This document shows, piece after piece, positions 1 to 45,457 of a DNA stretch of 64,000 nt; the first letter of the stretch is position 1, and each line of letters starts with the position of its first letter. A program made the position numbers and the translations under genes. This DNA comes from an uncultured Thermoleophilia bacterium (GTDB lineage Bacteria; Actinomycetota; Thermoleophilia; Gaiellales; Gaiellaceae): positions 148,020-212,019 of the forward strand of contig CAVXLT010000005.1 in assembly GCA_963762715.1 (NCBI GenBank), given 5' to 3'. A model generated the notes under the pieces. That model saw only the letters and a program-made list of their open reading frames with translations, was not told where the DNA came from and made no database searches.

Positions 1-822
1 AACTTCGAGGCGAACCAGCGTCTCTGGCTCGCCCTCGCCCGGGAGGAGGCGGCGCCCCTCGCCGACGCCCTCCGCGACACGGCCGAGATCCCGGGCGCCG
101 ACCAGTGGGGGACGTTCCTGCGAAACAACGACGAGCTCGATCTCGGCCGGCTGTCGGACGATGACCGGCGCCTCGTGTTCCGGAAGTTCGCGCCGTCGCA
201 ACGCATGCAGCTGTACGGCCGTGGGATCCGGCGGCGGCTCGCCCCCATGCTCGGCGGCGACCGCCGGCGGGTCGAGCTGGCGTTCGCTCTCCTGCTCTCC
301 CTGCCGGGCACGCCGGTCCTCTACTACGGCGACGAGATCGGCATGGGTGAGGACCTGTCGCTTCGGGAGCGCGACTCGGTGCGCACGCCCATGCAGTGGT
401 CGAGCGGGCCGAACGGCGGGTTCTCCGCGGCGCCGCGCCGGCAGTGCGCGCTGCCCGTCCTCTCCCGCGGCGCCTACGGGTTCCGGCAGGTGAACGTCGC
501 CGACCAGCACCGGGACACGAGCTCGCTCCTGCATTTCGTCCGACGCGCGGTACGTGCGCGGCGAGAGCTGCGCGGCCTCGGCTCCGCCGCATGGGAGCAG
601 GTTCGGGTGCGGGAGCCGGCCGTGTTCGCCCTCCGCTACCGCCGCGACGACACGGAGCTACTCGCCGTGCACAACCTCGCGCGCACCCCCGTCCGCGTGC
701 GCGGCCTCGACGCGGAAGGGCTCGCCGATGCCTTTGCGAATCGCGACTACCCGACGCCCGGCAGGACCGTCGAGCTCGATGGCTTCGGCTTTCGCTGGCT
801 GCACGCGCCCGAAGCGTTCTGA
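1..822 (+). CDS. GH13 alpha-amylase family protein, trehalose synthase (TreS)-like, C-terminal part; 5' end lies outside window
   Basis: Frame 1 is open from base 1 to TGA 820-822. Translation has FLRNNDELDLGRL, GIRRRLAPMLGGDRRR and SLPGTPVLYYGDEIGMGED...VRTPMQW, motifs I recognise from TreS/GH13 enzymes. Strong GC3 bias. Confidence 0.8.
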   Translation, partial: NFEANQRLWLALAREEAAPLADALRDTAEIPGADQWGTFLRNNDELDLGRLSDDDRRLVFRKFAPSQRMQLYGRGIRRRLAPMLGGDRRRVELAFALLLSLPGTPVLYYGDEIGMGEDLSLRERDSVRTPMQWSSGPNGGFSAAPRRQCALPVLSRGAYGFRQVNVADQHRDTSSLLHFVRRAVRARRELRGLGSAAWEQVRVREPAVFALRYRRDDTELLAVHNLARTPVRVRGLDAEGLADAFANRDYPTPGRTVELDGFGFRWLHAPEAF

Positions 823-872
823 TCTGCGCGGCAGGAGCTGCGAGACGTACCGCCGAGTCGGCCGCTCGGGTG

Positions 873-1841
873 CTAGTGCCCGGAGACCGCGTGCGGGACG
901 TAGGGCTCCTCCAGCCGCGCGAGCTCGTCGGCCGAGAGTGACAGCTCGGCGGCGGCGAGCGCATCCTCGAGGTGCCCGAGCTTCGTCGCACCGACGATCG
1001 GAGCGGTCACCCCCGGCTTGTGCAGCAGCCACGCGAGCGCGACCTGCGCCGGCGGCACGCCGCGTGCCTCCGCCACCTCGGACGCGCGGTCGACGACCGG
1101 GAAGTCGAGGTCGGGGGTGTACAGCGAGTCGGCGAACTCGTCGGTCTGCGCGCGCGTCGTCCGTCGCTCGCCCTCACGTGTGCGGTTCCCGGCGAGCAGG
1201 CCGCGTGCGAGCGGGCTCCACGGCAGCACCGCGACGCCCTGGTCGATGCACTGCGGGATCATCTCCCGCTCCTCCTCGCGGTAGACGAGGTTGTAGTGGT
1301 TCTGCATCGACACGAACGGCGTCGGCGCGACCGACTGCGCCTTGGCGAACTGCCACGCGTACATGCTGCTCGCGCCGATGTACCGGGCCTTGCCCGCGCG
1401 GACGACGTCGTGGAGCGCCTCCATCGTCTCCTCGATCGGCGTACGCGGATCCCAGCGGTGGATCTGGTACAGGTCGACGTAGTCGAGCCCGAGCCGCTCG
1501 AGCGACGCGTCGATCGAGGCCAGGATGTGCTTGCGCGAGAGGCCGGCGCCGTTCTCGCCGGGCATCGTCCTGCCGTGCACCTTCGTCGCGACGACGTACT
1601 CCTCGCGCGTCTCGAACAGCTGCTTCAGCAGCCGCCCGGTGACCACCTCGCTCCGGCCGCCGTTGTAGACGTCGGCGGTGTCGAAGAAGATGATCCCTCC
1701 CTCGGCGGCCCCGCGCACGATCGGCTCGGCGGCGGCCTCGTCGATCGCCCACGGGCGCGACTCGTCCGCGCCGTAGCTCATCATCCCGAGGCAGACCCGC
1801 GACACGCGCAACCCCGTGGCGCCGAGATTCACGTACTCCAT
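873..1841 (-). CDS. aldo/keto reductase
   Basis: 322-aa ORF with GLRVSRVCLGMMSYG, FFDTADVYNGGRSE, ATKV and LPWSPLARGLL, all typical AKR motifs. Confidence 0.92.
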   Translation of the reverse strand: MEYVNLGATGLRVSRVCLGMMSYGADESRPWAIDEAAAEPIVRGAAEGGIIFFDTADVYNGGRSEVVTGRLLKQLFETREEYVVATKVHGRTMPGENGAGLSRKHILASIDASLERLGLDYVDLYQIHRWDPRTPIEETMEALHDVVRAGKARYIGASSMYAWQFAKAQSVAPTPFVSMQNHYNLVYREEEREMIPQCIDQGVAVLPWSPLARGLLAGNRTREGERRTTRAQTDEFADSLYTPDLDFPVVDRASEVAEARGVPPAQVALAWLLHKPGVTAPIVGATKLGHLEDALAAAELSLSADELARLEEPYVPHAVSGH

Positions 1842-1862
1842 GCTCGAACGCTACCGGGCGGC

Positions 1863-2477
1863 TCAGGCTGCGAGCTGCTCGAACGCGCGCCGGAAGACGT
1901 CGAGCGGCTGGGCGCCGAGGAGGATCAGCCGCCGGTCGAGCAGGAATGCCGGGATCGCGTTGATCCCGATCGACTGCGCCTGCGCCGTCGAGCCGTGCAC
2001 GACGTCCAGGTACGCCGACGGGTCGGCGATCACGTGCTCCACGTCCTCAGCCTCGAGCCCGACCTCCGCGGCGAGCCGCCGCAGCTCGTCCCGGTCACCG
2101 AGGTTCGTCGCCTCCGACCAGTACGCCTGCATCAGCCGGTCGTGAAACGGCTCGTGTAGCCCGTGCTCGCGCGCGAGCTCCGTCAGCCGCAGCGCGAGCT
2201 TCGTGTTCGGCACGGTCTCGGGGCGCTCGTAGACCAGCCCCGCCGCTTCGAAGCGGTCGCGCAGCGGGTCACGCTGCCCCGCCGAGAGCCCGTAACGGCG
2301 GTGGAGCTCGGCGAGCGGGATCCCCTCCTCCGGGTACTCCGGGTGCAGGTCGAACGGGAGCCAGGTCACCTCGGCGTCGAACTCGCGCCGCGCCTCCTCG
2401 GCCGTCACCTGGCCGAGCCGGCACCACGGTCAGAGGTAGTCGCTCCAGACGAGAATCGTGTGCTCCGCCACGGCCAC
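1863..2477 (-). CDS. DsbA/FrnE-like thiol:disulfide oxidoreductase with in-frame TGA (2430-2432) at the first Cys of CxxC; candidate selenoprotein, or a nonsense-disrupted gene
   Basis: ORF 1863..2408 is a DsbA-like body without an active site. The same frame upstream reads VAVAEHTILVWSDYL-TGA-PWCRLGQ, i.e. WSDxx[C->TGA]PWC. Possible GTG starts at 2477 or 2471. Confidence 0.6.
2397..2417 (-). promoter_or_regulatory. SECIS-like mRNA hairpin downstream of the in-frame UGA of the DsbA-like gene
   Basis: mRNA CUCGGCC-AGGUGAC-GGCCGAG: perfect 7-bp stem beginning 12 nt after the UGA, with GGU in the apical loop. Confidence 0.4.
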
Positions 2478-4853
2478 ATGTTCCCACGCGTCCCGTTCCT
2501 GTGCGAGGCTGCGCATCGGGTGGGCACAGGGGTTCGCGGAGTGGCAGCGAGGTTCGTCGCAGCGGCGGCGGTCGCCGCGCTTGCGCTCGGGGCGGCGGGA
2601 ACCGCCGCCCGTCCGGCCGCGGCGGGGTGCGCGCAACGCGGCGTGTCGTCGAGCTACGCCGGAGCGGTGGCGGGAGCCGCCGCCGCCGGGCGCGACCTCT
2701 GGGGCGGCGCGCTCGTGCGCAGAGCCGGCGGCCCGACGTACGAGGCCGCCCGCCGCTATCTGGCACCGCTCACGCAGGCGCTCCGGCGCGGCCCCCGGCC
2801 GCTCACGGCGAGCGGCTCGTACTACGTGCCGCTCTCGTATCCGTTCACGTCGTACGGCTCGCCGATGTACGCGCTCCACGTGGCCGACGGAAGCGAGATC
2901 GTCACCCGCCGTGTCGGCGGGCCCTCGCTGAAGCTCTTCGTCGGCGAGCTCGGCAAGGAGGCGTACGGCTCCTGTACCTCGCGGCTGCGGCCGGCGCGGC
3001 TCGCGCAGGGGTACCTGCCGATCCTGCAGACCACGTACGAGGACTCCGGCGGAGTTCGGTACGTACAGGAGTCGTTCGTCGGGCGCGCCTACGGCGCCTT
3101 CGGCGCGCGGTCGACGATCAGCTTCGTGCGGCTCGTCGTCGACGCGCGGCAAGCCTCGCGCGGCGCGCGGGTGCGGCTCGCTCCCTGGCGGCGGCTCGCG
3201 CACTCGGCGCCCGACCGACTCGCCCTCGACGGGCAGACGCGGCTGATCGTGAGCGACGGCGCGCAGTTCGTCGACGGCGTCGCCCGCTACCACGTACCGC
3301 AGGGGGAGAAGGAGACGATCTACGCCGAATGGCTGAACGCACCGTCGGACGCCGGCCACGTCCACGCCGACGCCGAGACCTACGACGCCGCGCGCGCGAC
3401 CGTCGTCAACTTCTGGCAGTCGCGGCTCGACGCGGGCGCGACGTTCTCGGTCCCGGAAGCCGCGACGCAGAACGCAGAGCTCGGCGTGCTCACCCAGCTG
3501 ATCTCCTTCGGCTGGCGCTACAGCGTCGGCAACCAGTACGAGGAGCTGTCGTACGCCGAGTCGCTCGACGCCGCCGAGGTCGCCGTCGAGTACGGCTACC
3601 CCTCCGTCGCCAGGTCGATCGTCGAGCTCGCGCTCCGCCGGATCCGGGCGGACCGGGCGGCGTTTCGCGCGTTCCGGGGCGGCCACCTCCTCGCGACTGC
3701 GGCGCTGTACGTGAGGTCGACCCGCGACCGCGCGTTCCTGCGGGCCGCGACACCGGCGCTCGCGGACGTCGTCGCGCGCATCGCCGCGCGGCAGCAGCGG
3801 ACCGGCAAGCTGCGCGGGCGGCTGATCCCGGAGGCGCTCTCCACCGACCTCGAGAACCAGGCTGTCGACAGCGTCCCCGGGCAGCTCGAGGCGATCGAGG
3901 GGCTGCGGGCGATCAGCCGCGTCTGGAGCGCCGCGGGCGTCCGGTCGCAGGCGGCCCGCGCAGCGGTGCTCGCGACGTCGATCGACCGGGCGGTGCGGCC
4001 GGCGCTCGCGCACGTCTCCCGGCGCCTGCACGACGGGACGCTGTTCGTCCCCGACCGGCTCACCGGCCAGAAGCCGTTCGGGCGGCTGACGGCCTCGCGC
4101 GACGGCTCCTACTGGAACCTGATGATGCCGTACGCGTTCTCGTCGGGGTGGTTCGCGCCGCACACGGCCGTGGCGCGCGGGATCCTCCGCTACCTCCTGC
4201 GGCACGGCTCCCGGCTCCTCGGCGTCACGCGCACCTATGCGGGCACCGTCTACGGCGACAAGGGAGGCGCCGGCATCGCGCCCGTCTACGGGCTCGGGAT
4301 GTCGCGCTTCTTCGCCGACAACGACCAGCCCGACCAGCTCGACCTGAGCCTGTACGGGATGCTCGCGACCGGGATGACCCAGGGCACGTACGTCTCGGGC
4401 GAGGCGGTGTCGTTGTTGCCGGTCGGCAGCGCGTCCGGGCGGGCGATGTTCATGCCGCCGAACGCCGGCGCGAACGCCTCGTACCTCGGCACCCTGCGGG
4501 AGCTGCTGGTGCACGAGCGCCGCGGCCCCCTCGGAGCCCCCGCCGGCCTCGACCTCGCCTTCTCGACGCCCCGTGCCTGGCTCGCCGACGGCCGGTCGAT
4601 CGAGGTGAGAGACGCGCCGACCAGCTTCGGCAAGCTCTCGTACTCGATCACCCGGAGCGGGTCGAGCGTGGTCGCACGGCTCGTCCTCCCGCGCACCGGC
4701 GACGTGCGGCTGCGGCTCCGCCTTCCCGCGGGCGAGAGGCTCACCCGGGTGCTCGTGGGCTCGAGCTCCGTCGCCCCGGGCGCCGCCGGGACGATCGACC
4801 TCGGCGCTCGGCACGGCACGCTCCTCGTGCGCGCCGCCGTCGGCGCGGGCTGA
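2478..4853 (+). CDS. large secreted or lipoprotein of unknown function (possibly glycoside-hydrolase-like)
   Basis: Long GC3-biased ORF. N-terminus VGTGVRGVAARFVAAAAVAALALGAAGTAARPAAAGC looks like a signal peptide with a lipobox-like AAGC. Start uncertain (ATG 2478 or GTG 2520). I do not recognise a family motif. Confidence 0.65.
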   Translation: MFPRVPFLCEAAHRVGTGVRGVAARFVAAAAVAALALGAAGTAARPAAAGCAQRGVSSSYAGAVAGAAAAGRDLWGGALVRRAGGPTYEAARRYLAPLTQALRRGPRPLTASGSYYVPLSYPFTSYGSPMYALHVADGSEIVTRRVGGPSLKLFVGELGKEAYGSCTSRLRPARLAQGYLPILQTTYEDSGGVRYVQESFVGRAYGAFGARSTISFVRLVVDARQASRGARVRLAPWRRLAHSAPDRLALDGQTRLIVSDGAQFVDGVARYHVPQGEKETIYAEWLNAPSDAGHVHADAETYDAARATVVNFWQSRLDAGATFSVPEAATQNAELGVLTQLISFGWRYSVGNQYEELSYAESLDAAEVAVEYGYPSVARSIVELALRRIRADRAAFRAFRGGHLLATAALYVRSTRDRAFLRAATPALADVVARIAARQQRTGKLRGRLIPEALSTDLENQAVDSVPGQLEAIEGLRAISRVWSAAGVRSQAARAAVLATSIDRAVRPALAHVSRRLHDGTLFVPDRLTGQKPFGRLTASRDGSYWNLMMPYAFSSGWFAPHTAVARGILRYLLRHGSRLLGVTRTYAGTVYGDKGGAGIAPVYGLGMSRFFADNDQPDQLDLSLYGMLATGMTQGTYVSGEAVSLLPVGSASGRAMFMPPNAGANASYLGTLRELLVHERRGPLGAPAGLDLAFSTPRAWLADGRSIEVRDAPTSFGKLSYSITRSGSSVVARLVLPRTGDVRLRLRLPAGERLTRVLVGSSSVAPGAAGTIDLGARHGTLLVRAAVGAG

Positions 4854-4879
4854 CGGCCGCGACGCTTCCGATCGGCACC

Positions 4880-5059
4880 GGCGGGTACCTCCGCCCCGTG
4901 CCCGCGCGGAGCCGCGGCGTCCCGCTCGACTCCGACCTCGCGGAGCTCGTGCTCGCCACGATCCATCCGAGCGCGGTGCTGCGGGGCGAGGACCGGGAGG
5001 AGCTCTTCGCGGGGCTCGTCGACGACCTGCGGGTCGTCACGAGGCTGATCGCCGCCTGA
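4880..5059 (+). pseudogene. C-terminal remnant of a family-4-type uracil-DNA glycosylase
   Basis: About 60 codons read ...LVLATIHPSAVLRGEDREELFAGLVDDLRVVTRLIAA-stop, resembling the conserved HPSA(L/I)LR C-terminus of UDG family 4. No N-terminal part exists because the upstream gene occupies that space. Confidence 0.35.
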
Positions 5060-5060
5060 G

Positions 5061-5099
5061 CCGCGCAATCCGCAGAAATATCGGCTGCGCAATGCGCAG
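5061..5099. promoter_or_regulatory. candidate operator pair upstream of gabT
   Basis: Perfect 7-1-7 palindrome CTGCGCA-A-TGCGCAG (5085-5099) and a related half-degenerate copy CCGCGCAATCCGCAG (5061-5075), separated by the AT-rich spacer aaatatcgg. Confidence 0.3.
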
Positions 5100-6399
5100 C
5101 GCGCACTATCCAGAACGAAACGCTGCGTATACAGTCGAGCGCGTCGTGTCGTTGCAGGAGCGCCGTGCCACGGAACGCGTGCAGGACGCTCGCGAGCGCT
5201 ACGTCGCACGCGGCGTCTCCACGCCGCCGCTCGTCGTCGAGCGCGCCGAAGGAGCCCGGATCTGGGACGTCGAGGGCCGCGAGTACGTCGACTTCGCCGG
5301 CGGCATCGGCTGCGCGAATGTCGGGCACAACCTGCCCGCGGTCGTCGACGCGGTGCACGCGCAGGTCGACCGCTACATGCACCAGTGCTTCATGGTCGGC
5401 ATGTACGAGCCCTACGTCGAGGTGTGCCGCCGGCTCGCCGAGCTGTCGCCGTGCCGCGGGGAGCAGCAGAAGTCGCTGCTGCTGAACTCCGGCGCCGAGG
5501 CGGTCGAGAACGCGGTCAAGATCGCGCGCGTCGCGACGGGGCGCCCGGCCGTGGTCGTCTTCGACAACGCCTTCCACGGCAGGACCCTGCTCGCGATGAC
5601 GATGACGTCGAAGGTCGTCCCGTACAAGGCGGGCTTCGGCCCGTTCGCGCCCGAGGTCTACCGCACGCCGGCTCCCTATCCGTTCCGCGGCGTCACCGAG
5701 GACGACGCGATCGAGGCGCTCCGGCATCTCTTCAAGGGAGACGTCGACCCGCAGTCGGTCGCCTGCGCCGTGCTCGAGCCGGTGCAGGGCGAGGGCGGCT
5801 TCATCCCGATGACTCCCGACTTCCCGAAGCGCCTCCAGGAGCTGCTCGACGCGCACGGCATCCTCTACGTCGACGACGAGGTGCAGTCGGGCTGCGGTCG
5901 CACCGGGCCGGTCTGGGCGATCGAGCACTACGGCGTCGAGCCCGACCTGCTCGTGTCGGGCAAGACGCTCGGTGGCGGGCTGCCGCTCGCCGCGGTCACG
6001 GGTCGAGCCGAGATCGTCGACGCGGTTCCGCCCGGCGGCCTCGGCGGCACGTTCGGCGGCAACCCGGTCTCGTGCGCCGCCGCGCTCGCGGTGCTCGACG
6101 CCCTCGGCGAGCAGCGCCCGCGTGCCGTCGAGGTCGGTGAGCGCGTACGAGCTCGCCTCGAGCAGATCGCGCCAGAGGGCGCGGACGTCCGCGGGCTCGG
6201 GCCGATGCTCGCGCTCGAGCTGCCCGAGCGCACCGGCGAGCAGGCGGGCCGCATCACCGCGGCCGCGCGCGAGCAGGGCCTGCTGCTGCTCTCCTGCGGG
6301 ATCTACGGCAACGTGATCAGGATCCTCGTCCCGTTCACCGTCTCCGACGAGGAGCTCGGGCGCGGCCTCGACATCCTCGAGCGCTGCCTCGCCGCCTAG
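5092..6399 (+). CDS. gabT: 4-aminobutyrate aminotransferase (class III PLP aminotransferase)
   Basis: WDVEGREYVDFAGGIGCANVGH, NSGAEAVENAVKIAR, DNAFHGRT, DEVQSGCGRTG, SGKTLGGGLP and GGTFGGNP motifs. The true start may be GTG 5146, since ATG 5092 lies inside the palindrome. Confidence 0.9.
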   Translation: MRSAHYPERNAAYTVERVVSLQERRATERVQDARERYVARGVSTPPLVVERAEGARIWDVEGREYVDFAGGIGCANVGHNLPAVVDAVHAQVDRYMHQCFMVGMYEPYVEVCRRLAELSPCRGEQQKSLLLNSGAEAVENAVKIARVATGRPAVVVFDNAFHGRTLLAMTMTSKVVPYKAGFGPFAPEVYRTPAPYPFRGVTEDDAIEALRHLFKGDVDPQSVACAVLEPVQGEGGFIPMTPDFPKRLQELLDAHGILYVDDEVQSGCGRTGPVWAIEHYGVEPDLLVSGKTLGGGLPLAAVTGRAEIVDAVPPGGLGGTFGGNPVSCAAALAVLDALGEQRPRAVEVGERVRARLEQIAPEGADVRGLGPMLALELPERTGEQAGRITAAAREQGLLLLSCGIYGNVIRILVPFTVSDEELGRGLDILERCLAA

Positions 6400-6565
6400 A
6401 GGCTTGATGCGCATTTGTGGGCATACGCGGCTGGTGCGCCTGACACGGCGCGGCTCGGCCGCGTCGGGCTTGCCCGTAGCCACCGCTACGCGCTGCGCCC
6501 GCCCCGCCCGATCCGCTCGGTCAGGCGCATCCCCGCGCACACCCCAATACACATCAAGCCTCTAG
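6396..6565. repeat. about 170-bp imperfect palindromic element (MITE-like or structured RNA)
   Basis: Perfect 14-bp inverted termini CTAGAGGCTTGATG (6396-6409) and CATCAAGCCTCTAG (6552-6565). Nested inner inverted repeats include GTGCGCCTGAC / GTCAGGCGCAT. The left end overlaps the gabT stop. Confidence 0.55.
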
Positions 6566-6570
6566 AGCCC

Positions 6571-7549
6571 GTGGCGGCGAGCGTCGACGTCGAGGGCATT
6601 CGAAAGACCTACGGCGAGGTCACGGCCGTCGCCGGCGTCGACCTGCACGTCGGCGAGAACGAGTTCTTCACGCTGCTCGGCCCCTCGGGGTCCGGCAAGA
6701 CGACCACGCTGCGCGTGATCGCCGGCTTCGAGCGGCCCGACGCGGGGCGCGTGATGCTGGGCGGCGAGGACATCACGCTGCGGCCGCCGTACTCGCGCGA
6801 CGTCAACACCGTGTTCCAGGACTACGCCCTCTTCCCGCACATGACCGTCGCCGACAACGTCGGCTACGGGTTGAAGGTGCGGCGGGTCGCCCGCACGGAG
6901 CGGCGGCAGCAGGTCGACGAGGTGCTGCGCATGGTCCGCCTCGACGGCTACGGGGACCGCAAGCCGATCCAGCTCTCCGGCGGGCAGCGGCAGCGTGTCG
7001 CGCTCGCGCGCGCGATCGTCAACCGCCCGAAGGTGCTGCTGCTCGACGAGCCGCTCGGCGCGCTCGACCTGAAGCTCCGGCAGGAGATGCAGGTGTTCCT
7101 GAAGTCGCTCCAGCGCGAGCTCGGCATGACGTTCGTCTACGTCACGCACGACCAGGAGGAGGCGCTGACGATGAGCGACCACGTCGCCGTGTTCAACGGC
7201 GGCCGGATCGAGCAGGTCGGGTCGCCGACCGAGGTGTACGAGCGCCCGGCGACCGCGTTCGTCGCCGGCTTCGTGGGCACCTCGAACATCCTCGAGCGCG
7301 GCGGGCGGCGCTTCTCGGTGCGGCCCGAGCGCATCCAGCTGAACGGTTCCGGCGAGCCGGGGACGGTCGCCGACGTGATCTTCGTCGGCTCCTTCATCCG
7401 GATTCTCGTCGACACGGACTCCGGCGACCGGCTCGACGGTCGTCCGGGCGAACGACGGCCCCCACGTCGAACGAGGGGCCCGCGTCCACGTCGCCTGGCG
7501 CGACGAGGACGCATACGAGATCGCATCCACCGAGCAGGAGGGCAGATGA
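6571..7549 (+). pseudogene. spermidine/putrescine ABC transporter ATPase (PotA-like), one apparent frameshift near 7430
   Basis: Walker A GPSGSGKTT, LSGGQRQRVALARA and LLLDEPLGALD. After ...DTDSGDRL the homologous C-terminus (VVRANDGPHVERGARVHVAWRDEDAYEI...GR-stop) continues in another frame and ends in an ATGA overlap with the next gene. Confidence 0.85.
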
Positions 7550-8661
7550 GCAAGAGCACGTGGGCAGTGGTCGCGGTGCTCGCGGCCGCACTCGCGTTTC
7601 CCGCAGCGGGCGTCACGAAGGCGCACGGCGGGACGCTGAACATGATCGCGTGGGAGGGCTACCTCCAGAAGCAATGGGTGCAGCCGTTCGTGAAGTCGAC
7701 GGGCTGCACGATCCACCCGAAGTACGCCGGCTCGTCCGACGAGATGGTGACGCTGATGCGCAGCGGCGGCGGCGGCCAGTACGACCTGGTCTCCGCCTCG
7801 GGCGACGCGTCGCTCCGCCTGATCTACGGCAAGGACGTGCAGGCGGTCGATCCGGCGAAGGTGCCCGACTTCAAGAACTTCGGCAAGGCGTTCCGGTCGC
7901 CGCCGAACAACACGGTCGGCGGGAAGCACTACGGCATCTCGCTGCAGTGGGGCCCGAACACCCTGATGTACAACACGAAGCAGGTGAAGCCCGCCCCGAC
8001 GTCGTGGGCGTCGATCTACTCGACGAAGTACAAGGGCAAGATCACCGTCCCCGACAACCCGATCCAGATCGCCGACGCGGCGCTCTACCTGATGAAGCAC
8101 CAGCGCTCGCTCGGGATCAAGGACCCGTACGAGCTGAACCCGAAGCAGTTCGGTGCCGCGATCAACCTGCTGAAGAAGCAGAAGCCGCTGATCAAGAAGT
8201 ACTGGGCGCTCGCCTCGGACGAGATCGACCTGTTCAAGAACGGTGACGCCGTGATCGGCGCGTCGTGGCCGTACCAGACGAACACGCTGATCGGCGCGAA
8301 GGCGCCGGTGAAGGACACGGTGCCGAAGGAGGGAGCGACGGGCTGGCTCGACACGTGGATGGTGTCGTCGAAGACGAAGAACCTCGACTGCGCCTACAAG
8401 TGGCTCGCCTACGTCTCGACCCCGAAGGTGCAGGCCGAGCAGGCGATCTACTTCGGCGAGACCCCCGTCAACAGCAAGGCCTGCAAGATCATGAACACCC
8501 TCTCCAAGGGCTCGTGCGCGCAGTACCACGCGAACGCGCCGCTCAAGTACTTCAAGCAGATCTACTTCTGGAAGACGCCGATCGCCGACTGCGGCAACGG
8601 CAAGAAGGACTGCATGGACTACACGAAGTGGCAGCAGGCCTGGACTCAGCTGAAGGGCTAG
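7546..8661 (+). CDS. spermidine/putrescine-binding periplasmic protein (PotD/PotF-like)
   Basis: Signal peptide MSKSTWAVVAVLAAALAFPAAG followed by a typical PotD-like body (IAWEGY, YDLVSASGD, WGPNTLMYN). Intact frame. Confidence 0.88.
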   Translation: MSKSTWAVVAVLAAALAFPAAGVTKAHGGTLNMIAWEGYLQKQWVQPFVKSTGCTIHPKYAGSSDEMVTLMRSGGGGQYDLVSASGDASLRLIYGKDVQAVDPAKVPDFKNFGKAFRSPPNNTVGGKHYGISLQWGPNTLMYNTKQVKPAPTSWASIYSTKYKGKITVPDNPIQIADAALYLMKHQRSLGIKDPYELNPKQFGAAINLLKKQKPLIKKYWALASDEIDLFKNGDAVIGASWPYQTNTLIGAKAPVKDTVPKEGATGWLDTWMVSSKTKNLDCAYKWLAYVSTPKVQAEQAIYFGETPVNSKACKIMNTLSKGSCAQYHANAPLKYFKQIYFWKTPIADCGNGKKDCMDYTKWQQAWTQLKG

Positions 8662-8663
8662 AG

Positions 8664-9553
8664 CCGTCGCGCTCCGGAGGGCGTCGCCGCCTCGGCGGCG
8701 CCCTCTGGCGGCGGCCCTGGCTGAAAGGGCTGTCGCTGCTCTCCCCGCCGGTGGTGGCGTTCCTCGCCGTCTACGTGACGGCGCTCGTGGCGCTCTTCGT
8801 CTCCTCCTTCTGGACGGTCGACCCGTTCACGTCGCAGACGGTGCACCACTGGACGCTCGACAACTTCCGCGAGCTGTGGCGGGGAGCCACCTACCACCGC
8901 GTCGCCCTGCGCACGGTCTCGATCGCGGCGGCGGTGACGGTGACCGACGCGATCATCGCGCTTCCCGTTCGCGTACTTCATGGCCCGGGTCGCGGGGCCG
9001 CGCACGCGTGCGGTGCTGTTCGTGCTCGTGCTGCTGCCGCTCTGGGCCTCGTACCTCGCCCGCGTCTACTCCTGGCGGCTGATCCTGAACTCGGACGGCC
9101 TGCTCAACTGGTCGCTGCACAGGGTCGGCCTGCCGTCGGCCGGGATCGCCTACACGAACACCGCGATGTGGATCGTCTTCTCCTACATCTGGCTGCCGTT
9201 CATGATCCTGCCCGTCTACTCGTCGCTCGAGCGCATCCCCCACTCCTACATCGAGGCGTCGCGCGACCTCGGCGCGCGCGGCGGACGGACGCTGCGCACC
9301 GTGATCCTGCCGCTCGCGCTGCCCGGCATCGTCGCCGGCTCGATCTTCACGTTCTCGCTCACGCTCGGCGACTACATCACGCCGATCCTGATCGGCGGCG
9401 CGTCCAGCCAGTTCATCGGCAACGTCGTCTACGACTCGGTCAACGGCTCCGGGAACCTGCCGTTCGGCGCCGCCTTCGCCGTCGTGCCGGTGGTCGTGAT
9501 GGGCGTCGTACCTCGTGATCGCGCGCCGGCTGGGAGCGTTCGACGCGCTGTGA
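8664..9553 (+). pseudogene. ABC transporter permease (PotB-like), at least 2 apparent frameshifts (~8965, ~9507); start undetermined
   Basis: The permease sequence (LLSPPVVAFLAVYV...; LLPLWASYLARVYSWRLIL...EASRDLGARGGRTLRTVILPLALPGI) is split over frames. No ATG/GTG is found in the first frame after the potD stop. Confidence 0.75.
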
Positions 9554-10351
9554 CCGGACGCGCGGGACGAAGATCGCGCTCGGCGTCTGGGTCGGCGCTC
9601 GTGCTGGCGTTCCTCTACGTGCCGATCGCGGTCATCTGCCTGTACGCGTTCAACAAGTCGAACGTGCAGAGCTGGCCGATCGCCGGCCTGACGACGCGCT
9701 GGTTCTCGCCGGCGATCCACAACCCCGAGCTGCGGCAGGCCCTCTGGCTGTCGTTGAAGGCGGGGGCCCTCGCGACGGCGATCGCGCTCGTGCTCGGCTC
9801 GATGGCGTCGTTCGGCGTGCACCGGTTCCGCTTCTTCGGCCGCGAGTCGGTGTCGTTCCTGCTCGTGCTGCCGATCGCGCTGCCCGGGATCATCACCGGC
9901 ATGGCGCTCAACTCCTACTTCACGTTCTGGAAGTTCAACTTCGGGCTCTGGACGATCGTGATCGGCCACGCCACCTTCTGCGTGGTCGTCGTCTACAACA
10001 ACGTGCTCGCCCGCCTGCGCCGCGTGCCGGGCTCGCTCACCGAGGCGTCGATGGATCTCGGCGCCGACGGGCTGGCAGACGTTCCGCTACGTCACGTTCC
10101 CGACGATCTCGACCGCGCTCATCTCGGGGGGGCTGCTCGCGTTCGCCCTCTCGTTCGACGAGGTGATCGTCACCACGTTCACCGCCGGCGCGCAGAACAC
10201 CCTGCCGATCTGGATCTTCGGCCAGATCCGGCTCGGCCAGCAGCTGCCGCAGGTGAACGTCGTCGTCTTCGTCATCCTTGCAATCACGATCATCCCGGTC
10301 GCGCTCGCCCAGCGCCTGACGAGCGAGAGCGGGATACTTCGAACCGAATAG
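9550..10351 (+). pseudogene. ABC transporter permease (PotC-like), apparent frameshift near 10070
   Basis: GTGA overlap with the previous gene. LAFLYVPIAVICLYAFN...EASMDLGADG is followed in another frame by WQTFRYVTFPTI...VTTFTAGAQNTLPIWIFGQ...stop. Confidence 0.78.
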
Positions 10352-10361
10352 GAGGTGTGAG

Positions 10362-11779
10362 ATGGCGACAGATCTCGATCGGCGGACGTGGACGAGCGAC
10401 GCCGGGAGACGATCGACCCGGCGACCGGCGAGACGATCGCCCAGGTGCCGAACATGTCGGCCGCCCAGAGTCGACGAGGCGGTCGAGAAGGCGAAGAAGG
10501 CACTGCCGGAGTGGCTCGACGCCACCCCGAAGCGAGCGTCGGAGCTGCTGCTGAAGCTGGCGGACGTGATCGACGACAACGCCGAGGAGCTCGCGGCAGA
10601 TCGAGTCGCGCAACGTCGGCAAGCCGCTGATGGCCTACGCGCGGACGAGATGCCGTTCTGCGCCGACAACCTGCGCTTCTTCGCCGGCGCCGCGCGGAAC
10701 CTCGAGGGGAAGGCGGCGGGCGAGTACATGCAAGGGCTACACGTCGATGATCCGCCGCGAGCCGATCGGCATCGTCGCCGGCATCGCCCGTGGAACTACC
10801 CGCTGATGATGGCGGTCTGGAAGATGGGCCCGGCGCTCGCGGCGGGCAACGTGCAGATCCTGAAGCCGTCGGAGCAGACGCCGATGTCGCTGCTCCGGTT
10901 CGTCGAGCTGGCGAAGGACGTGATTCCCGACGGGGTGCTGCAAGGTGGTGACGGGCGACGGCGTCCCCGTCGGGCGAGCGGATCGTCAGCATCCCGACAT
11001 CGGCCTCGTCTCGCTCACCGGCGACGTCGAGACCGGGAAGACGATCGCGCGCAGCGGCGCCGACACCTTCAAGCGCATGCATCTCGAGCTCGGCGGCAAG
11101 GCGCCGATGGTCGATCTTCGACGACGCCGACGTCGGAGGCGGTCGCGGAGGGGATCAAGCTCGCCGGCTACTGGAACTCCGGCCAGGACTGCACCGCCGG
11201 CTCGCGCATCATCGCCGGCCCGAAGATCTACGACAGCCTGCTCGAGGCGCTCGTGCCGGTGATCGAGGCGATCAAGGTGGGCGACTCCGGCCGACGGCGA
11301 CGAGTCGAGATGGGGCCCGTGATCACGCGAGGCTCAGCAGGAGCGGGTGCTCGGCTTCCTCGAGCGCGCCAAGGGCGCGACCGTGCTCACGGGCGGCTCC
11401 GCCCGGGGCGACCGCGGGTTCTTCGTCGAGCCGACGATCGTCACCGACGTCGCCCAGGACGACGAGATCGTCCAGCGCGAGGTGTTCGGGCCGGTCGTGA
11501 CCGTGCAGCGGTTCGCCGACGACGACCAGGCGATCGCGTGGGCGAACGACGTGCGCGTACGGCCTCGCCGCGTCGGTCTGGACGCGAGACGTCGGCCGCG
11601 CGTTGAACGCAGCGCGCAAACTCCAGTTCGGCACCGTCTGGGTGAACGACCACCTGCTGCCGATCACCTCGGAGATGCCGCACGGCGGCTACAAGCAGTC
11701 GGGGTACGGCAAGGACATGTCGATCTACTCGATGGAGGAGTACACGCAGCTGAAGCACGTGGCGCTGAAGATCGACTGA
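10362..11779 (+). pseudogene. aldehyde dehydrogenase (gamma-aminobutyraldehyde dehydrogenase-like) with about 16 apparent frame changes
   Basis: AGGAGG lies 6 nt upstream of ATG 10362. ALDH motifs are scattered over all three frames: ETIDPATGETIAQVP, PWNYPLMMAVWK, LELGGKAP, GQDCTAGSR, REVFGPVV, PHGGYKQSGYGKD. Confidence 0.85.
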
Positions 11780-11798
11780 GGGCCGCGCCCCGGTTCCC

Positions 11799-12006
11799 GG
11801 TGTCAGACACCTCGTGGTGTCTGACACCTAAAGGTGTCTGACACCAGTTCGGGTCGCGCTGCCGCACGTCCGCCGAGCCGCGGCGTACTACGCAACGGTG
11901 TCAGACACCAAAAGGTGTCTGACACCAGTTCGGCTCGCGCCACCGTGCGGCCCCGAGCCGCGGCGCAGTACGCAACGGTGTCAGGCACTAAAAGGTGTCT
12001 GACACC
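11799..12006. repeat. family-A hairpin repeat array (GGTGTC-N-GACACC pairs)
   Basis: 13-mers start at 11799, 11816, 11833, 11897, 11914, 11977 (degenerate) and 11994. Pairs are separated by 4 nt and recur every 80-81 bp with a conserved flank agttcgg.tcgcgc...gagccgcggcg. Lies between convergent genes. Confidence 0.85.
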
Positions 12007-12009
12007 GGT

Positions 12010-13326
12010 TCAGCGCAGGCGGAACGTCGGGTACGGCGTGAGGGAGACACAGCTCGTGTCGAGCCCTCGGGCCGTGCCCGCGTCGACGAAGTCGCGCACC
12101 ACGTTCGGCAGGCAGCCGAGCTGTTCCACGCCGTGGGCGCCGCCCGGGACGGTCACGACCTTCGCGTTCGGCATCGCACCGCCGATCCCGGCGACGTTCG
12201 CCGGCGGGTCCTTCGGGTCGGCGCCGCCGGCGAGCACCAGCACCGGCACGGCGGAGCGGACCCGCGACCAGTCCTCAGGCCCGGCGTCCGGCTGCGGCCA
12301 GGCCGCGCAGACCTCGTGCATCGTGTTCGCCCAGGCCGGCTGGTAGTAGGCGAGATAGGTGCCCCTGGCGTTCGCGGAGGTCTTGGCCGGGTCGGCCGCC
12401 GCCCAGGGCTCGGTGCACATGATCGCGAGCGGCATCACGCCGACCGTGGGGGCGAACAGCGCGTTCGCGCGGATCTGGCGCGCGAGCGGCGCGTAGGCGC
12501 CCGACTCGGCGCGTGCGAGCAGGAACGGAACCTGCACGGCTCCCGGTTGGGACGCCGTCAGCTCGCGGACGGTCGACGCGGTCGCGGCGGCATCGACCCT
12601 GGTGGAGCCGACGAGCGCCGGGTGGCGCGCGAGCTTTGCGAGCAGCGCGGGGAAACGCGCGTACCAGTGCGGGAACGCCCGCTCGCAGGCCGGATCGGCG
12701 CGGCAGCGCCGGTCGAGCAGCTTCAGCGCGCGCTGGCCGGTCGCGGCCCAGGTCTCGAACAGGGGCACGTCGAGGAGCGTCGCCCCGTCGAGGGTGACGG
12801 TGCGCACCGTCTCCGGGTGGCGGCGCAGGTAGACCTGCACGGCCGTCGCCCCGTAGGACGCGCCGTAGAGACTGATCCGCTCGTAGCCGAGCGCGCTGCG
12901 GACGGCGTTCAGGTCGTCCATCGCGTCGGGCGTGCGGTAGTGGCCCACGTCGGCGTCGAGCGACCCCAGGCACTGCGCGACGAGTTGCGCGATCGAGGTC
13001 GAGGTGGTCGCGAGTTGGCACCCGAGCGGATTCGAGCCGCCGACGCCGCGCTGGTCGACGAAGACGATGTCGTGGTGGGCGTTCAGCGGCGCGAACGACG
13101 CCGCGACGCCCGGAACGGTGTCCAGGTCGACGCCGCCGGGGCCGCCGGTGACGTAGAAGAGCGGCTCGCCGCGCCTGCCCGTCTTCTCCGTCGCGGGGAG
13201 CACAGCGACGCGGAGCGCGATCTGCCGGCCGTCGGGCCGGGCCCAGTTCTCGGGGACGTTCAGGCTGCCGCACTGGGCGGAGACGCCGCCGAGCGAGCAG
13301 GCGGCCAGCACGATCGCACCGAACAC
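12010..13326 (-). CDS. secreted alpha/beta hydrolase (tripeptidyl aminopeptidase-like)
   Basis: N-terminal hydrophobic/Cys segment, GGPGG, VFVDQRGVGGS, nucleophile elbow GASYGA, and a C-terminal GGAD...GGAHG. Confidence 0.8.
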   Translation of the reverse strand: MFGAIVLAACSLGGVSAQCGSLNVPENWARPDGRQIALRVAVLPATEKTGRRGEPLFYVTGGPGGVDLDTVPGVAASFAPLNAHHDIVFVDQRGVGGSNPLGCQLATTSTSIAQLVAQCLGSLDADVGHYRTPDAMDDLNAVRSALGYERISLYGASYGATAVQVYLRRHPETVRTVTLDGATLLDVPLFETWAATGQRALKLLDRRCRADPACERAFPHWYARFPALLAKLARHPALVGSTRVDAAATASTVRELTASQPGAVQVPFLLARAESGAYAPLARQIRANALFAPTVGVMPLAIMCTEPWAAADPAKTSANARGTYLAYYQPAWANTMHEVCAAWPQPDAGPEDWSRVRSAVPVLVLAGGADPKDPPANVAGIGGAMPNAKVVTVPGGAHGVEQLGCLPNVVRDFVDAGTARGLDTSCVSLTPYPTFRLR

Positions 13327-21133: not shown

Positions 21134-21866
21134 TCAGCCCGAGTGAGCGAGCGGCGCCGCCTGTAGCTCCCGCTCGATCGCCTGCTCGAGCTCGTGCGGC
21201 TTGAACCCGAACGGCCCTTCGCCGCCCTGATAGGCGATGCGTCCGTCCGCGCCGACGAGGTAGAGGCGGTCCGGCCAGCCGCCGTAGGCGGAGGCGACGG
21301 CGTTGTCGAGCTCGTCGACCACGGCGGGCATCGTCAGCTCCAGCCTGGCGGCGCAGGTGGAGGCGACCGCGTGCCGCTCGGCCGCCGTCACGCGGCTCCC
21401 GCACGGCGATCCCGGAGCGACGGTTCTCGGGGATGATCCAGCCGTCCTCGGGATGCGCCTCGCGGATGTAGACGGCCAGGAAGTGCACGCGGTCGCCGTA
21501 CCGCACGGCCAGATTCTCCAGCGTCCCAACCTGGGCGCGGAACGGTGGTCAGGTGTAGGAGCCGAAGACGAGCGCCACCGGCCGCTCGGCGACGAGCGAG
21601 CCGAGGCACAGCATGCCGGCGCCGTCGAGCCGTGCGAGCTCGAAGTCGGGCGCGGGGTCGCCGACCACGACCTTCGCCGTCATCAGGTTCCGGTAGTCCT
21701 CGCTCGCGAGCACGTCCTGCATCGTCAGCGGCGAGTCGTCCGGCGCCCCGCCCCGGCCGTGGCGGAGCTGCGAGACGAGCATGCCGGGAACCGACCAGCG
21801 CGGGTCGACAGGGCTGCCGCGCGAGACGGTCCGCATGTAGGCGAGGATGTCGCGCGGCGAGGGCAC
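21134..21866 (-). pseudogene. iodothyronine-deiodinase-like thioredoxin-fold protein with in-frame TGA (21549-21551) at the Sec position, plus one apparent frameshift (~21392)
   Basis: ORF 21549..21866 ends ...VALVFGSYT-TGA. The same frame continues PPFRAQVGTLENLAVRYGDRVHFLAVYIREAHPEDGW, so the motif is FGSxT-U-PPF. The C-terminal DELDNAVASAYGGWPDRLYLVGADGRIAYQGGEGPFGF lies in the frame of ORF 21134..21529. Confidence 0.6.
21517..21541 (-). promoter_or_regulatory. SECIS-like mRNA hairpin downstream of the in-frame UGA of the deiodinase-like gene
   Basis: mRNA UCCGCGCCC-AGGUU-GGGaCGCuGGA: 9 bp with two single-nt bulges, starting 7 nt after the UGA. The loop GGU sits about 21-23 nt after the UGA. 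Confidence 0.4.
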
Positions 21867-21965: not shown

Positions 21966-22295
21966 CTACGACCGCGGGTCGCTCTCCTCGACCTGCGCGC
22001 GCGTCTCGACGTGCTTCTCCACGACGAGGTAGCGGTCGTTGCGGTCGACGACGTCCTCGATGTGGGGAACCTCGTGTCCCGGCAGGACGACGAAGTGGTG
22101 TGCGTTCCGCCGAACCAGCTCGTACTCGCGCAACGTCGCCGTGACGCGCTGCGTGCACTCCACCTGGGCGCACTCGCAGACGAGGTCGAGCTCGCCGCCC
22201 CACGCGTCGCTCAGCTCCACGATCCGCTCGTTGACCTGGCGGAATAGCTCTTCGTTGGCGGCGAGCCGCTCTTCGCGAGAGGACATCCGCGACAC
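21966..22295 (-). CDS. small conserved Cys-containing protein (CEC-x3-C), unknown function; paralog of 22376..22660
   Basis: 109 aa. ANEELFRQVNERI...LVCECAQVECTQ...VVLPGHEVPHIEDVV...YLVVEK aligns with the divergent neighbour. Confidence 0.65.
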   Translation of the reverse strand: MSRMSSREERLAANEELFRQVNERIVELSDAWGGELDLVCECAQVECTQRVTATLREYELVRRNAHHFVVLPGHEVPHIEDVVDRNDRYLVVEKHVETRAQVEESDPRS

Positions 22296-22375: not shown

Positions 22376-22660
22376 ATGCAGCGAGCGGAGATCGACCGGA
22401 GGCGAATGAACGAGGAGACGTTCGCCGGTGCCAACGAGCAGATTCGCGAGGCAGCCGAACACCATCGCGTCGATCCGGTGCCCTTTCTCTGCGAGTGCTC
22501 CGCGACGAACTGCAAGGACCTGCTCTCCCTCCCCCTCGACGCCTACCGGAAGGCACGGGCGACCGGCGGCTTCATCATCCGTCCCGACCACGACGATCCG
22601 CACGTGGAGCACGTGATCGAGGATCACGGGACCTACCAGGTCGTCAAGAAGTTCCGGTAG
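22376..22660 (+). CDS. small conserved Cys-containing protein (CEC-x3-C), unknown function; paralog of 21966..22295
   Basis: 94 aa. MNEETFAGANEQI...FLCECSATNCKD...IIRPDHDDPHVEHVI...YQVVKK. Confidence 0.65.
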   Translation: MQRAEIDRRRMNEETFAGANEQIREAAEHHRVDPVPFLCECSATNCKDLLSLPLDAYRKARATGGFIIRPDHDDPHVEHVIEDHGTYQVVKKFR

Positions 22661-22727: not shown

Positions 22728-22801
22728 AGCGGATGATGGGACTCGAACCCACGACCTTCTGCATGGCAAGCAGACGCTCTAGCCAACTGAGCTACATCCG
22801 C
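22728..22801 (-). tRNA. tRNA-Gly (anticodon GCC)
   Basis: Reverse complement GCGGATGTAGCTCAGTTGGCTAGAGCGTCTGCTTGCCATGCAGAAGGTCGTGGGTTCGAGTCCCATCATCCGCT folds as a cloverleaf. Anticodon loop is TTGCCAT. No encoded CCA. Confidence 0.93.
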
Positions 22802-32214: not shown

Positions 32215-32287
32215 AGGGGCGTGGCGCAATTGGTAGCGCACCGGTCTCCAAAACCGGGGGTTGCAGGTTCGAGTCCTGTCGCCCCTG
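32215..32287 (+). tRNA. tRNA-Trp (anticodon CCA)
   Basis: AGGGGCGTGGCGCAATTGGTAGCGCACCGGTCTCCAAAACCGGGGGTTGCAGGTTCGAGTCCTGTCGCCCCTG folds as a cloverleaf. Anticodon loop is CTCCAAA. Confidence 0.93.
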
Positions 32288-39931: not shown

Positions 39932-39973
39932 CCCGTTCTTAGGTCGCTCCCAGCGCCCGCTCATTGGCGTCTC

Positions 39974-40344
39974 ATGCGCTCCGGGCACGCTCGAACCATG
40001 AGATCCGACGTTCAGCGAGCCGTCGCCGCGCGCAACGCGGCCTTCTCGCGCGTCCGCCTCGCGACCGGAATCACGGTTGGGGTCGGCGCCGCGCTCACCG
40101 CCGCGTTCAGCGCGCTCGCCGCCGGCTCGACCCACCTCAAGAAGACGGTCGCCACGAAGGCTACGACGACCACGACGACCGCCGCCACGAAGCCGAAGGC
40201 CGCACCGCCCGTCACGGCGCCGGCGCCGCCGCTCGTCTCCGTGCAGAGCGACAACCCCTCCCCCACGGCGCCGCCGGCTCAGGCTCCTGCCTCACCGACG
40301 CCGGCGGCGCCGGCCTCCCCGCCGGTGGTCGTCTCGGGCGGATC

Positions 40345-40348
<4 letters not shown>
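39974..40348 (+). CDS. small membrane-anchored low-complexity (Thr/Pro/Ala) protein ending in SGGS
   Basis: Basic N-terminus, TM GITVGVGAALTAAFSALAAG, then a T/P/A-rich tail. Stop overlaps the GTG start of ApbE (GTGA). Counterpart of 30712..31011. Confidence 0.6.
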
Positions 40349-41269
<921 letters not shown>

Positions 41270-41273
<4 letters not shown>

Positions 41274-44715: not shown

Positions 44716-45449
44716 TCAGACGGCCGCGGCCGCGTAGGCGGCGCCGAAGGCGAACGCGAGCACCGCGAACGCCGGCAGCGCGCGGCCGAGGCCGCGCTCG
44801 ACGCGGGGCAGGCCGAGGGCCAGGCCGAGCCCGGCCGAGACGACGGCCATCGAAAGCGCCGTCGCGACGGCGAAGACGAGCAGGGCACCGGTTGCGACGA
44901 GACGGTCGCCGATCCCTGCGAGCAGGAGCAGCGCGATTCCGGCCGAGCCGCCGACGCCGTGGACGAGCCCGATCCCGAAGGCGGTCGCCGGCGAGCGGAC
45001 GGCGTGGGAATGCGCGTGGTCGTCCTCCTCGGGATGCGGGTGCAGGTGACGGTGCACCACCGGCCCTGCTCGTGCTCATGCTCGTGCTCGTGGGCGTGGA
45101 ACGCGCCGGCCTGCCACCGCCGGTAGAGGCGCACGGCGAGCAGCATGATCATCGCGCCGACGAGGCCCTCCGCGGCCCGCCGGTAGCCGTCGGCCAGCAC
45201 GGCCGCCACGAGCACGAACGGCAGCCCGAGCACGAGCAGCGACGTGGCGTGCCCGGCACCCCAGGCGAGCCCCAGGGTGCCCGCGGTGCGCGCACGCCGG
45301 TCGCGCTCCGTGGCGACGACGGTGGAGACGGCGACGAGGTGATCCGGGTCGGTCGCGTGCCGGAGGCCGAGCAGCACGGCGACCGCCAGCACGACCATGG
45401 GGCTGCCCCCGCGGCCGAGCCCGGAGATCAGCTCGTCGAGACCGAACAC
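44716..45449 (-). pseudogene. nickel/cobalt transporter (NiCoT/NicO-like), apparent frameshift ~45062
   Basis: LGLRHATDPDHLVAVS signature and a His-rich loop HAHEHEHEHEQG. The C-terminal half (HPHPEEDDHAHSH...GLVHGVGGSAG) is in another frame. Confidence 0.7.
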
Positions 45450-45457
45450 TCTGCGGG

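Follow-up and report, generated by a model that had tools for sequence, protein, structure and literature searches.

A deiodinase-like gene, probably encoding a selenoprotein, from the metagenome assembly of a Gaiellaceae-like actinobacterium

The window analysed here is the whole 64-kb stretch of contig CAVXLT010000005.1 from an uncultured actinobacterium, and its minus strand carries at 21134-21866 a gene related to the iodothyronine deiodinases that probably encodes a selenoprotein, with an in-frame TGA on the column of the active-site selenocysteine (Sec) or cysteine. An earlier note on this DNA had described an open reading frame (ORF) that stops at FGSYT-TGA and a continuation with PPF in the same frame, and both are present at 21551-21549 as described: the first ORF ends in ...DFELARLDGAGMLCLGSLVAERPVALVFGSYT (...RPVALVFGSYT), TGA follows at 21551-21549 of the minus strand, and the frame past the TGA reads PPFRAQVGTLENLAVRYGDRVHFLAVYIREAHPEDGW (PPFRAQVG...REPR) up to the site of an extra base. 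The zero-frame continuation after the TGA is PPFRAQVGTLENLAVRYGDRVHFLAVYIREAHPEDGWIIPENRRSGIAVREPR, and next the +1 frame, TAAERHAVASTCAARLELTMPAVVDELDNAVASAYGGWPDRLYLVGADGRIAYQGGEGPFGFKPHELEQAIERELQAAPLAHSG, leads to the stop codon at 21136-21134. With the extra base taken out the protein has 243 aa, and the gene is laid out as follows.

21134-21866, minus strand: whole deiodinase-like gene, predicted to encode a selenoprotein, from GTG at 21866 or ATG at 21836 to the stop codon TGA at 21136-21134
21552-21866, minus strand: N-terminal part, ending at ...VALVFGSYT, the same end as in the database fragments P0038, P0042, P0094 and P0110
21549-21551, minus strand: in-frame UGA, predicted residue U106; Cys in the FGSYTCPPFR homologues and Sec170Cys of Dio3
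21516-21542, minus strand: hairpin of the type of a selenocysteine insertion sequence (SECIS), UUCCGCGCCCAGGUUGGGACGCUGGAG, at +10 to +36 from the U of the UGA
21521-21538, minus strand: upper stem-loop of the hairpin, with the apical GGU at 21529-21531
21389-21392, minus strand: site of one extra base, CGTG within GAGCCGCGTGACGG, shifting the frame by +1, placed by nucleotide alignments to orthologues
21134-21388, minus strand: C-terminal part in the shifted frame including the stop codon, TAAERHAVASTCAARLELTMPAVVDELDN...GGWPDRLYLVGADGRIAYQGGEGPFGFKP..., with a ratio of non-synonymous to synonymous substitution rates (dN/dS) of 0.18-0.39

Family membership and active site

For the family searches the 243-aa sequence was used with the extra base deleted and Cys written for the TGA. 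It matches the Pfam model T4_deiodinase (PF00837) over residues 62-233 with 117.4 bits against a cutoff of 27 (E=8.1e-34), and the match spans profile positions 69-235 of 237 and crosses both the TGA and the frameshift. When a profile of 19 family members was compared with the structures of the Protein Data Bank, mouse Dio3 (4TR3, E=2.3e-36) and mouse Dio2 (9H48, E=2e-32) were matched over the entire catalytic domain, with FGSYT[C/U]PPFR aligned on FGSCT-C-PPF of Dio3, in which that Cys is the engineered Sec170Cys. Database homologues have Cys in this column (FGSYTCPPFR), or Ser in a few cases. Both proposals of the earlier note on this point, membership of the deiodinase family and a TGA on the Sec/Cys column, are borne out by these Pfam and structure-profile matches and by the alignment with the Cys homologues and Dio3. 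With peroxiredoxins of the AhpC-TSA/Redoxin type the protein shares the thioredoxin fold, a nucleophile at the same structural position and weak, sub-threshold Pfam matches (24.6 bits against a cutoff of 26 and 24.2 against 26.6; E about 3e-5), but the deiodinase model fits it far better. Judged by its sequence, the predicted protein belongs to the deiodinase fold family.

In Dio2 and Dio3, Ser, Thr, Tyr, Glu and His residues make up the deiodinase proton relay, together with a conserved Trp (PMC11592359). Among the 19 aligned members S103, Y133, E136 and H138 are invariant and T105 and W143 occur in at least 90%, and these residues align with Dio3/Dio2 residues. The thyronine-binding residues are not kept: Arg275 of Dio3 (4TR3 chain position 162), the proposed clamp for the substrate carboxylate, is replaced by E216, the consensus Glu of sgeGPfgf, and the counterpart of His182 of Dio2, the second relay His, is a Pro in REPRT (roles of both residues from PMC11592359). 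Because the carboxylate clamp is absent (Arg275 to Glu216), thyroid hormones are not expected as substrates and the substrate would be something other than an iodothyronine, a view that has also been put forward for bacterial deiodinase-like proteins by Zhang et al. (2005; PMC1088965). Since most of the relay residues are conserved along with Trp143, the U106 protein would likely carry out a Sec-based, peroxiredoxin-like redox or dehalogenating chemistry.

The UGA codon and the downstream hairpin

The database homologues of the protein fall into three groups, namely full-length Cys forms (with the few Ser forms), N-terminal fragments and C-terminal fragments; the N-terminal fragments P0038, P0042, P0094 and P0110 stop precisely at FGSYT, and the C-terminal fragments have about 135 aa. 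In the three closest orthologues (L001-L003; 75-79% identity in alignment A1; one lies on a 1.3-Mb contig) this codon is likewise TGA, and the frame then runs on without interruption, the frameshift being absent. A DNA pattern for F-G-S-Y-T-TGA-P-P-F run on metagenomes retrieved at least 120 stretches, and the same TGA with a downstream ORF is found in at least 121 independent metagenome contigs, the motif being U-P-P-F in the window and in all of these at least 121 pattern matches. Among the matches listed, the in-frame continuation has a length of 120-160 codons (median 132) in 94 of the 100 contigs that reach the downstream stop. A peptide scan of genome contigs with the pattern [FL]GSYT[CWS]P[PA]FR, which is unable to match TGA, gave 15 Cys-type loci. 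In comparisons with six orthologues, the part ahead of the UGA has a dN/dS of 0.24-0.31, the stretch between UGA and frameshift one of 0.13-0.34 and the part past the frameshift one of 0.18-0.39, and the values of 0.13-0.39 downstream of the UGA argue that translation past this codon is under selection.

On one metagenome contig (L030) two divergent Sec-type deiodinase-like genes were observed, at 1595-1621 (-) and 3230-3256 (+), about 1.6 kb apart.

The annotation of the homologues shows what happens to such genes in public data, and it also contains the evidence for an altered genetic code in which TGA would mean Trp or Gly. The JGI entries P0001-P0004 have W at the Sec position, and the JGI entry P0122, a homologue of the second gene described below, has G at its TGA. 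The DNA of two of the former (L002 and L003) reads TGA; the W arose artificially when a gene caller took code 4 on short contigs, and the G comes from code 25. Elsewhere in the window TGA is an ordinary stop on which the ORFs of Peptidase_M19, EF-G and HypF end with their domains complete, and since TGA ends many complete-domain genes in the window a recoded genetic code is in effect excluded. The genome is moreover actinobacterial with a GC content of 72%, and a recoded TGA would put W or G in the place of the catalytic nucleophile, so that this explanation is about as improbable as any considered here. The expectation that standard gene callers would split or mistranslate the gene proved right, given the fragments, fusions and W/G entries among the database homologues. 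In the public entry P0042 the N-terminal fragment is fused to an upstream methyltransferase ORF.

Counting the U of the UGA as 1, the fold computed here is the one drawn in the earlier note, with a spacer of 7 nt after the UGA and a GGU loop at +21 to +23, and can be written as UCCGCGCCC-AGGUU-GGGaCGCuGGA. Its 11-bp stem (window 21542-21516) consists of the outer pairs U10-G36, U11-A35, C12-G34 and C13-G33 and the inner pairs G14-C31, C15-G30, G16-C29, C17-G27, C18-G26, C19-G25 and, optionally, A20-U24, with A28 and U32 bulged and G21 G22 U23 in the loop. This geometry, a stem from about +10 and a G-U near +22, fits the description of bacterial SECIS elements as hairpins immediately downstream of the UGA with a G in a small apical loop (PMC1088965).

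Essentially all Sec forms have a hairpin at the same place, and its stem sequences vary (CGCGCCC/GGGaCGC, GGCGCC/GGCGCC, GGGCGUC/GACGCCC, GCCGAUC/GAUCGGC, CAGGC/GCCUG, CAUGC/GCAUG). Among the matches listed, G is present in 116 of 116 distinct loops and GU in 96 of 116, with the loop starting mostly at +20 to +24. The mean minimum free energy (MFE) of 30-nt segments in 96 genes, followed from -150 to +330, is lowest of all at +10 (-10.4 vs roughly -6.5 kcal/mol elsewhere), and at equal GC the Sec forms fold more stably than the 15 Cys forms (mean z -0.99 vs +0.22; Mann-Whitney p=7.5e-5). The MFE z-scores of 48-nt segments are uninformative at such GC content. A covariance model of the window-type structure (R1) has its sole match in the 64-kb window at 21504-21551 (62 bits, E=2e-15). 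In a model-fitted alignment of 76 sequences, which mixes several hairpin registers and subfamilies with different bulges, 75.9% of the cells are paired vs 67.2% after shuffling, 59 cells are changed on both sides vs 27.7, and the covariation score is 0.166 vs 0.089; for each of the three measures 0 of 500 shuffles reach the observed value. Registers slid along the same alignment score at most 0.111, and 6 of the 10 hairpin pairs have changes on both sides. The SECIS-like hairpin proposed earlier is thereby strengthened, its placement being conserved across the family and its covariation exceeding all 500 shuffles. The orthologues, in which either TGA or TGC might have been found, keep the TGA together with the conserved hairpin, and their copies are not decayed.

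At least two SECIS layouts can be seen in the first 45 nt past the TGA in loci L019-L138. The first, that of the window clade, has a 6-7-bp stem at +13/14 and a GGU, AGUU(G) or GGUC loop at +20 to +24; in the second, found in 36 sequences, the loop is CGUGC at +24 to +28, and a GGCC-GUGC-GCC core that codes for A-V-R is invariant whereas the outer stem varies.

The window contains a second gene of this kind 19 kb away, which the earlier note had also announced and which is confirmed at 2471-1863.

1863-2471, minus strand: DsbA-like gene, predicted to encode a selenoprotein, Pfam DSBA (PF01323) with E=2.1e-29

It reads MAEHTILVWSDYL-TGA(2432-2430)-PWCRLGQ, with ...WSDYL before the TGA, and hence has the motif U-P-W-C, a U-x-x-C motif in which the UGA takes the place of the first Cys of C-P-W-C. 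Downstream a 7-bp hairpin, CUCGGCC-AGGUGAC-GGCCGAG, is found at 2397-2417, with GGU at +24 to +26. The TGA is kept in a relative with ~95% identity (L139), and a 1.3-kb Logan contig from a separate assembly (L140, run ERR11571143) matches the window at 100% identity along 1280 bp, this TGA included. Nearly all of the best 120 database homologues of the DsbA-like protein were called as proteins of ~181 aa, and the ~181-aa entries that were inspected (P0121, P0123, P0148 and others) begin at a GTG after the TGA. Two thioredoxin-fold genes with a UGA on the nucleophile column and a GGU-loop hairpin argue that the organism decodes Sec. When the window was scanned for more in-frame TGA codons of this sort, the deiodinase-like and the DsbA-like gene were the only candidates; other in-frame TGA matches, at 21136, 55754, 59951, 61233 and 939, are ordinary gene ends or lie in non-coding frames.

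Several points weigh against reading the deiodinase-like gene as a selenoprotein gene. Taken by itself, the window hairpin has z = -0.67, and 51 of 200 shuffles are equally stable at 72% GC, so that the significance of the hairpin comes from the comparison with related sequences, the single fold being non-significant. The pair counts given above stem from an alignment of mixed registers and bulges, and an ungapped column-pair matrix and RNAalifold, applied to 52 sequences, give a consensus of just 5 pairs because the subfamilies differ in register and bulges. Neither ARAGORN nor Rfam finds a tRNA-Sec in the 64-kb window, and selA, selB and selD are missing among the window ORFs tested by Pfam scans. 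The NCBIfam model deiodinase_rel (NF038285) scores 218.1 bits, below its curated cutoff of 250, with a match limited to positions 178-340 of the 347-position model, that is, to its C-terminal half. The literature holds no experiment on any bacterial member of the family (PMC1088965, PMC13188914). Finally, the extra base is possibly a real, very recent frameshift mutation.

The poor z of the single hairpin and the want of Sec machinery in the 64-kb window would suit a different explanation, in which the TGA simply acts as a normal stop or arose as a random nonsense codon, with two unconnected ORFs or a defunct gene around it, and GC-rich DNA folds into the hairpin by chance. This is very improbable, as at least 124 sequences share the TGA at this codon, ahead of a continuation of ~132 codons under purifying selection, the Pfam domain runs across it, and the hairpin is conserved in position and pairing with compensatory changes in the Sec forms and lacking in the Cys homologues. 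A chance nonsense mutation is further disfavoured, as had been argued from the start, by the second gene with the same pattern, to which the conservation of the TGA in relatives is now added.

The frameshift and the quality of the assembly

Nucleotide alignments of the gene with each of five orthologues (L001, L002, L003, L038 and L118) have a single one-base gap, which lies within C21392 G21391 T21390 G21389 for four of the five and within about 10 nt downstream for the other; the frameshift is absent in all five. When T21390 is deleted the sequence becomes ...REPRTAAERHAVAS... and aligns to the orthologues gap-free. No further lesion (stop codon or deletion) is present in the deiodinase-like gene.

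At least six other genes of the window are also split between frames, with at least nine breaks in 64 kb. They include the following, in each of which a single Pfam domain or an obligate single-chain protein is divided:

9962-10348, plus strand: ABC permease (BPD_transp_1), split (Pfam)
10320-11838, plus strand: Aldedh in three frames, a single Pfam domain being split
39943-41270, plus strand: ApbE, with profile positions 2-145 and 184-257 in different frames
42502-43558, plus strand: NuoF-like protein (Complex1_51K + NADH_4Fe-4S) in three frames
45149-47600, plus strand: HypF, with acylphosphatase and zinc-finger domains in one frame and YrdC and Kae1-like domains in another

The relative L139 (ERZ25039483 contig_67252) is syntenic and ~95% identical to window positions 1-12660 and comes from the same kind of assembly as the window (contig_N names, ERZ2503948x accessions). 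The two sequences are separated by 77 one-base gaps in 12.4 kb, whereas only two gaps have a length that is a multiple of three, and L139 breaks different genes, such as an aminotransferase that is broken there and intact in the window. This pattern of one-base gaps is typical of consensus indel error and not of mutation under selection. Because frame breaks are many in the window and all orthologues are intact, the frameshift in the deiodinase-like gene is read as an assembly error; it is very probably an artefact, a base wrongly inserted in a noisy assembly that was probably made from long reads, and the real gene is probably intact. The earlier note was thus right about the presence of a frameshift near 21392 (now placed at 21389-21392), but its caveat that the gene may be decaying is weakened by the window-wide frame breaks and the intact orthologues.

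If, instead, the extra base at 21389-21392 were a true recent mutation, the gene would be inactivated in this strain and represent a young pseudogene of a selenoprotein gene. The frameshift does stand in the sequence as given, and pairwise dN/dS, at a dS of about 0.5-0.8, is blind to a very recent event. On the other side, the continuation is intact in five of five aligned orthologues and, among the matches listed, in 94 of 100 metagenome homologues, the other frame-broken genes of the window include conserved enzymes, the close relative L139 differs in its breaks and by its many one-base gaps, and the gene itself has no other lesion, all of which leaves the pseudogene an unlikely explanation that nevertheless carries some weight. 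Far less can be said for a programmed ribosomal frameshift as the source of the +1 change at 21389-21392. Coding signal is found in both frames around the site, but the shift is absent from every orthologue, the context (GAG CCG CGT GAC) is neither slippery nor that of a stop codon, hundreds of codons remain open in the zero frame and frame breaks are common across the window, and a programmed event is therefore as improbable as the altered code discussed above. Assembly error remains the preferred explanation of the extra base.

Proposed decoding and relation to known systems

Taking the evidence together, we put the probability at about 85% that the gene is of functional type and encodes a bacterial selenoprotein of the PF00837 thioredoxin-fold family, its host being a Gaiellaceae-like actinobacterium known as a metagenome-assembled genome (MAG), with the frameshift most likely an artefact. 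Following the established bacterial Sec pathway, the UGA at 21551-21549 would be decoded as Sec. A bacterial SECIS element would be provided by the hairpin at 10-36 nt downstream, whose apical loop holds G21 G22 U23; SelB-GTP carrying Sec-tRNA(Sec) would bind this hairpin and deliver Sec to the UGA in the ribosomal A site. U106 would then lie in FGSYT-U-PPF at the start of helix alpha1. The sequence comparisons demonstrate the family membership, the Sec/Cys column, the conserved UGA and downstream ORF, the conserved and covarying hairpin, purifying selection and the frame breaks elsewhere in the window. The function of the hairpin with SelB as a SECIS element, the incorporation of selenium, the enzymatic activity of the U106 protein and the erroneous nature of the frameshift are what we infer.

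Zhang, Fomenko and Gladyshev (2005; PMC1088965) described bacterial deiodinase-like proteins (Pfam00837) in Sec and Cys forms, together with bacterial SECIS elements, from the Sargasso Sea metagenome, and they described DsbA-like (COG2761/PF01323) U-x-x-C selenoproteins as well; both families are listed in prokaryotic selenoproteome reviews of 2022 and 2026 (PMC9312934, PMC13188914). The function of the prokaryotic deiodinase-like family is presumed to be redox (PMC1088965). The window gene shares with these proteins the PF00837 domain, the active-site UGA, the Cys homologues and the downstream hairpin with G in its loop. It differs from them in its host, a high-GC, Gaiellaceae-like soil actinobacterium in contrast to marine plankton, in the one-base frameshift of the copy as assembled, and in its motif, which is U-P-P-F whereas the reviews give a U-x-x-C redox motif for the family representative (PMC9312934, PMC13188914). 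By its sequence features the gene is an additional member of a selenoprotein family known since 2005, of which it has the defining features except U-x-x-C. The second gene of the window shares U-P-W-C, the DSBA domain and a downstream hairpin with the DsbA-like U-x-x-C selenoproteins. Animal Dio1-3 have in common with the window protein the FGS-x-T-Sec-PPF motif and the Y-I-x-E-A-H-P-x-D-G-W segment with the relay residues and Trp; their SECIS is a eukaryotic element in the 3'-UTR, unlike the in-ORF bacterial hairpin of the window, and the N-terminal ~60 aa of the window protein are without similarity to the N-terminal parts of the animal enzymes.

The paradigm of a SelB-dependent bacterial SECIS is that of E. 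coli fdhF, with the loop GGUC at +22 to +25. The window hairpin resembles it in lying within the coding sequence from about 10-11 nt past the UGA, in a bulged nucleotide in the upper stem and in having G-U in the apical loop at a distance of about 21-24 nt from the UGA. In primary sequence the two are unrelated, and the loop of the window hairpin is GGU (or AGGUU) at +21 to +23.

The scientific gain is modest: a family that metagenomes have documented since 2005 gains a further member, from a high-GC soil actinobacterium. Its practical value is larger: public annotation splits such genes at the UGA, fuses them upstream or resorts to code 4 or 25, noise in an assembly can give an intact selenoprotein gene the look of a decayed one, and the more than 120 aligned SECIS hairpins are a data set ready for a family-specific SECIS model. 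A bolder combined proposal, which we consider speculative and unlikely, is that soil Gaiellaceae-type bacteria have a sizeable undocumented selenoproteome, that the deiodinase-like enzyme is a Sec-dependent reductive dehalogenase acting on environmental organohalogens and not a generic thiol peroxidase, and that two SECIS architectures occur (GGU/AGUU at +20 to +24 and CGUGC at +24 to +28). The idea of a sizeable selenoproteome derives from the two Sec genes in one window and from the ~181-aa DsbA-like calls, which are as expected if the TGA cuts off the first 21 codons of the DsbA-like gene. A literature search on selenoproteins in Gaiellales or Thermoleophilia returned nothing relevant.

As regards the organism, the nearest named relatives of the acyl-CoA carboxylase of the window are found in Gaiellaceae MAGs (82-84% identity). 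Two database entries, P0241 and P0253, are 100% identical to window proteins. Downstream of the deiodinase-like gene lies an AIM24-family gene, upstream of it a small Cys-rich ORF, and the orthologue in L001 is flanked by genes for a methyltransferase and an acetyltransferase; since the neighbours differ between the two, they offer no operon clue to function. Beside the gene in 40 related loci ARAGORN detects no tRNA-Sec. The sole RNA genes detected in the window are two tRNA genes, found by ARAGORN/Rfam:

22728-22801, minus strand: tRNA-Gly(GCC)
32215-32287, plus strand: tRNA-Trp(CCA)

Immediately upstream of the deiodinase-like gene, two small ORFs, at 21966-22295 (-) with 109 aa and at 22376-22660 (+) with 94 aa, are transcribed divergently and are paralogues of each other (31% identity, E=4e-13); they have the motifs C-E-C-x3-C and P-x-H-x2-P-H-x-E in common, and Pfam gives no match for either. 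At 50880-51770 (-) lies a thioredoxin/DsbA-like domain (51329-51770) with, directly behind it in another frame, a VKOR domain (50880-51231), and these are either neighbouring genes of a system for disulfide formation or another frameshifted fusion.

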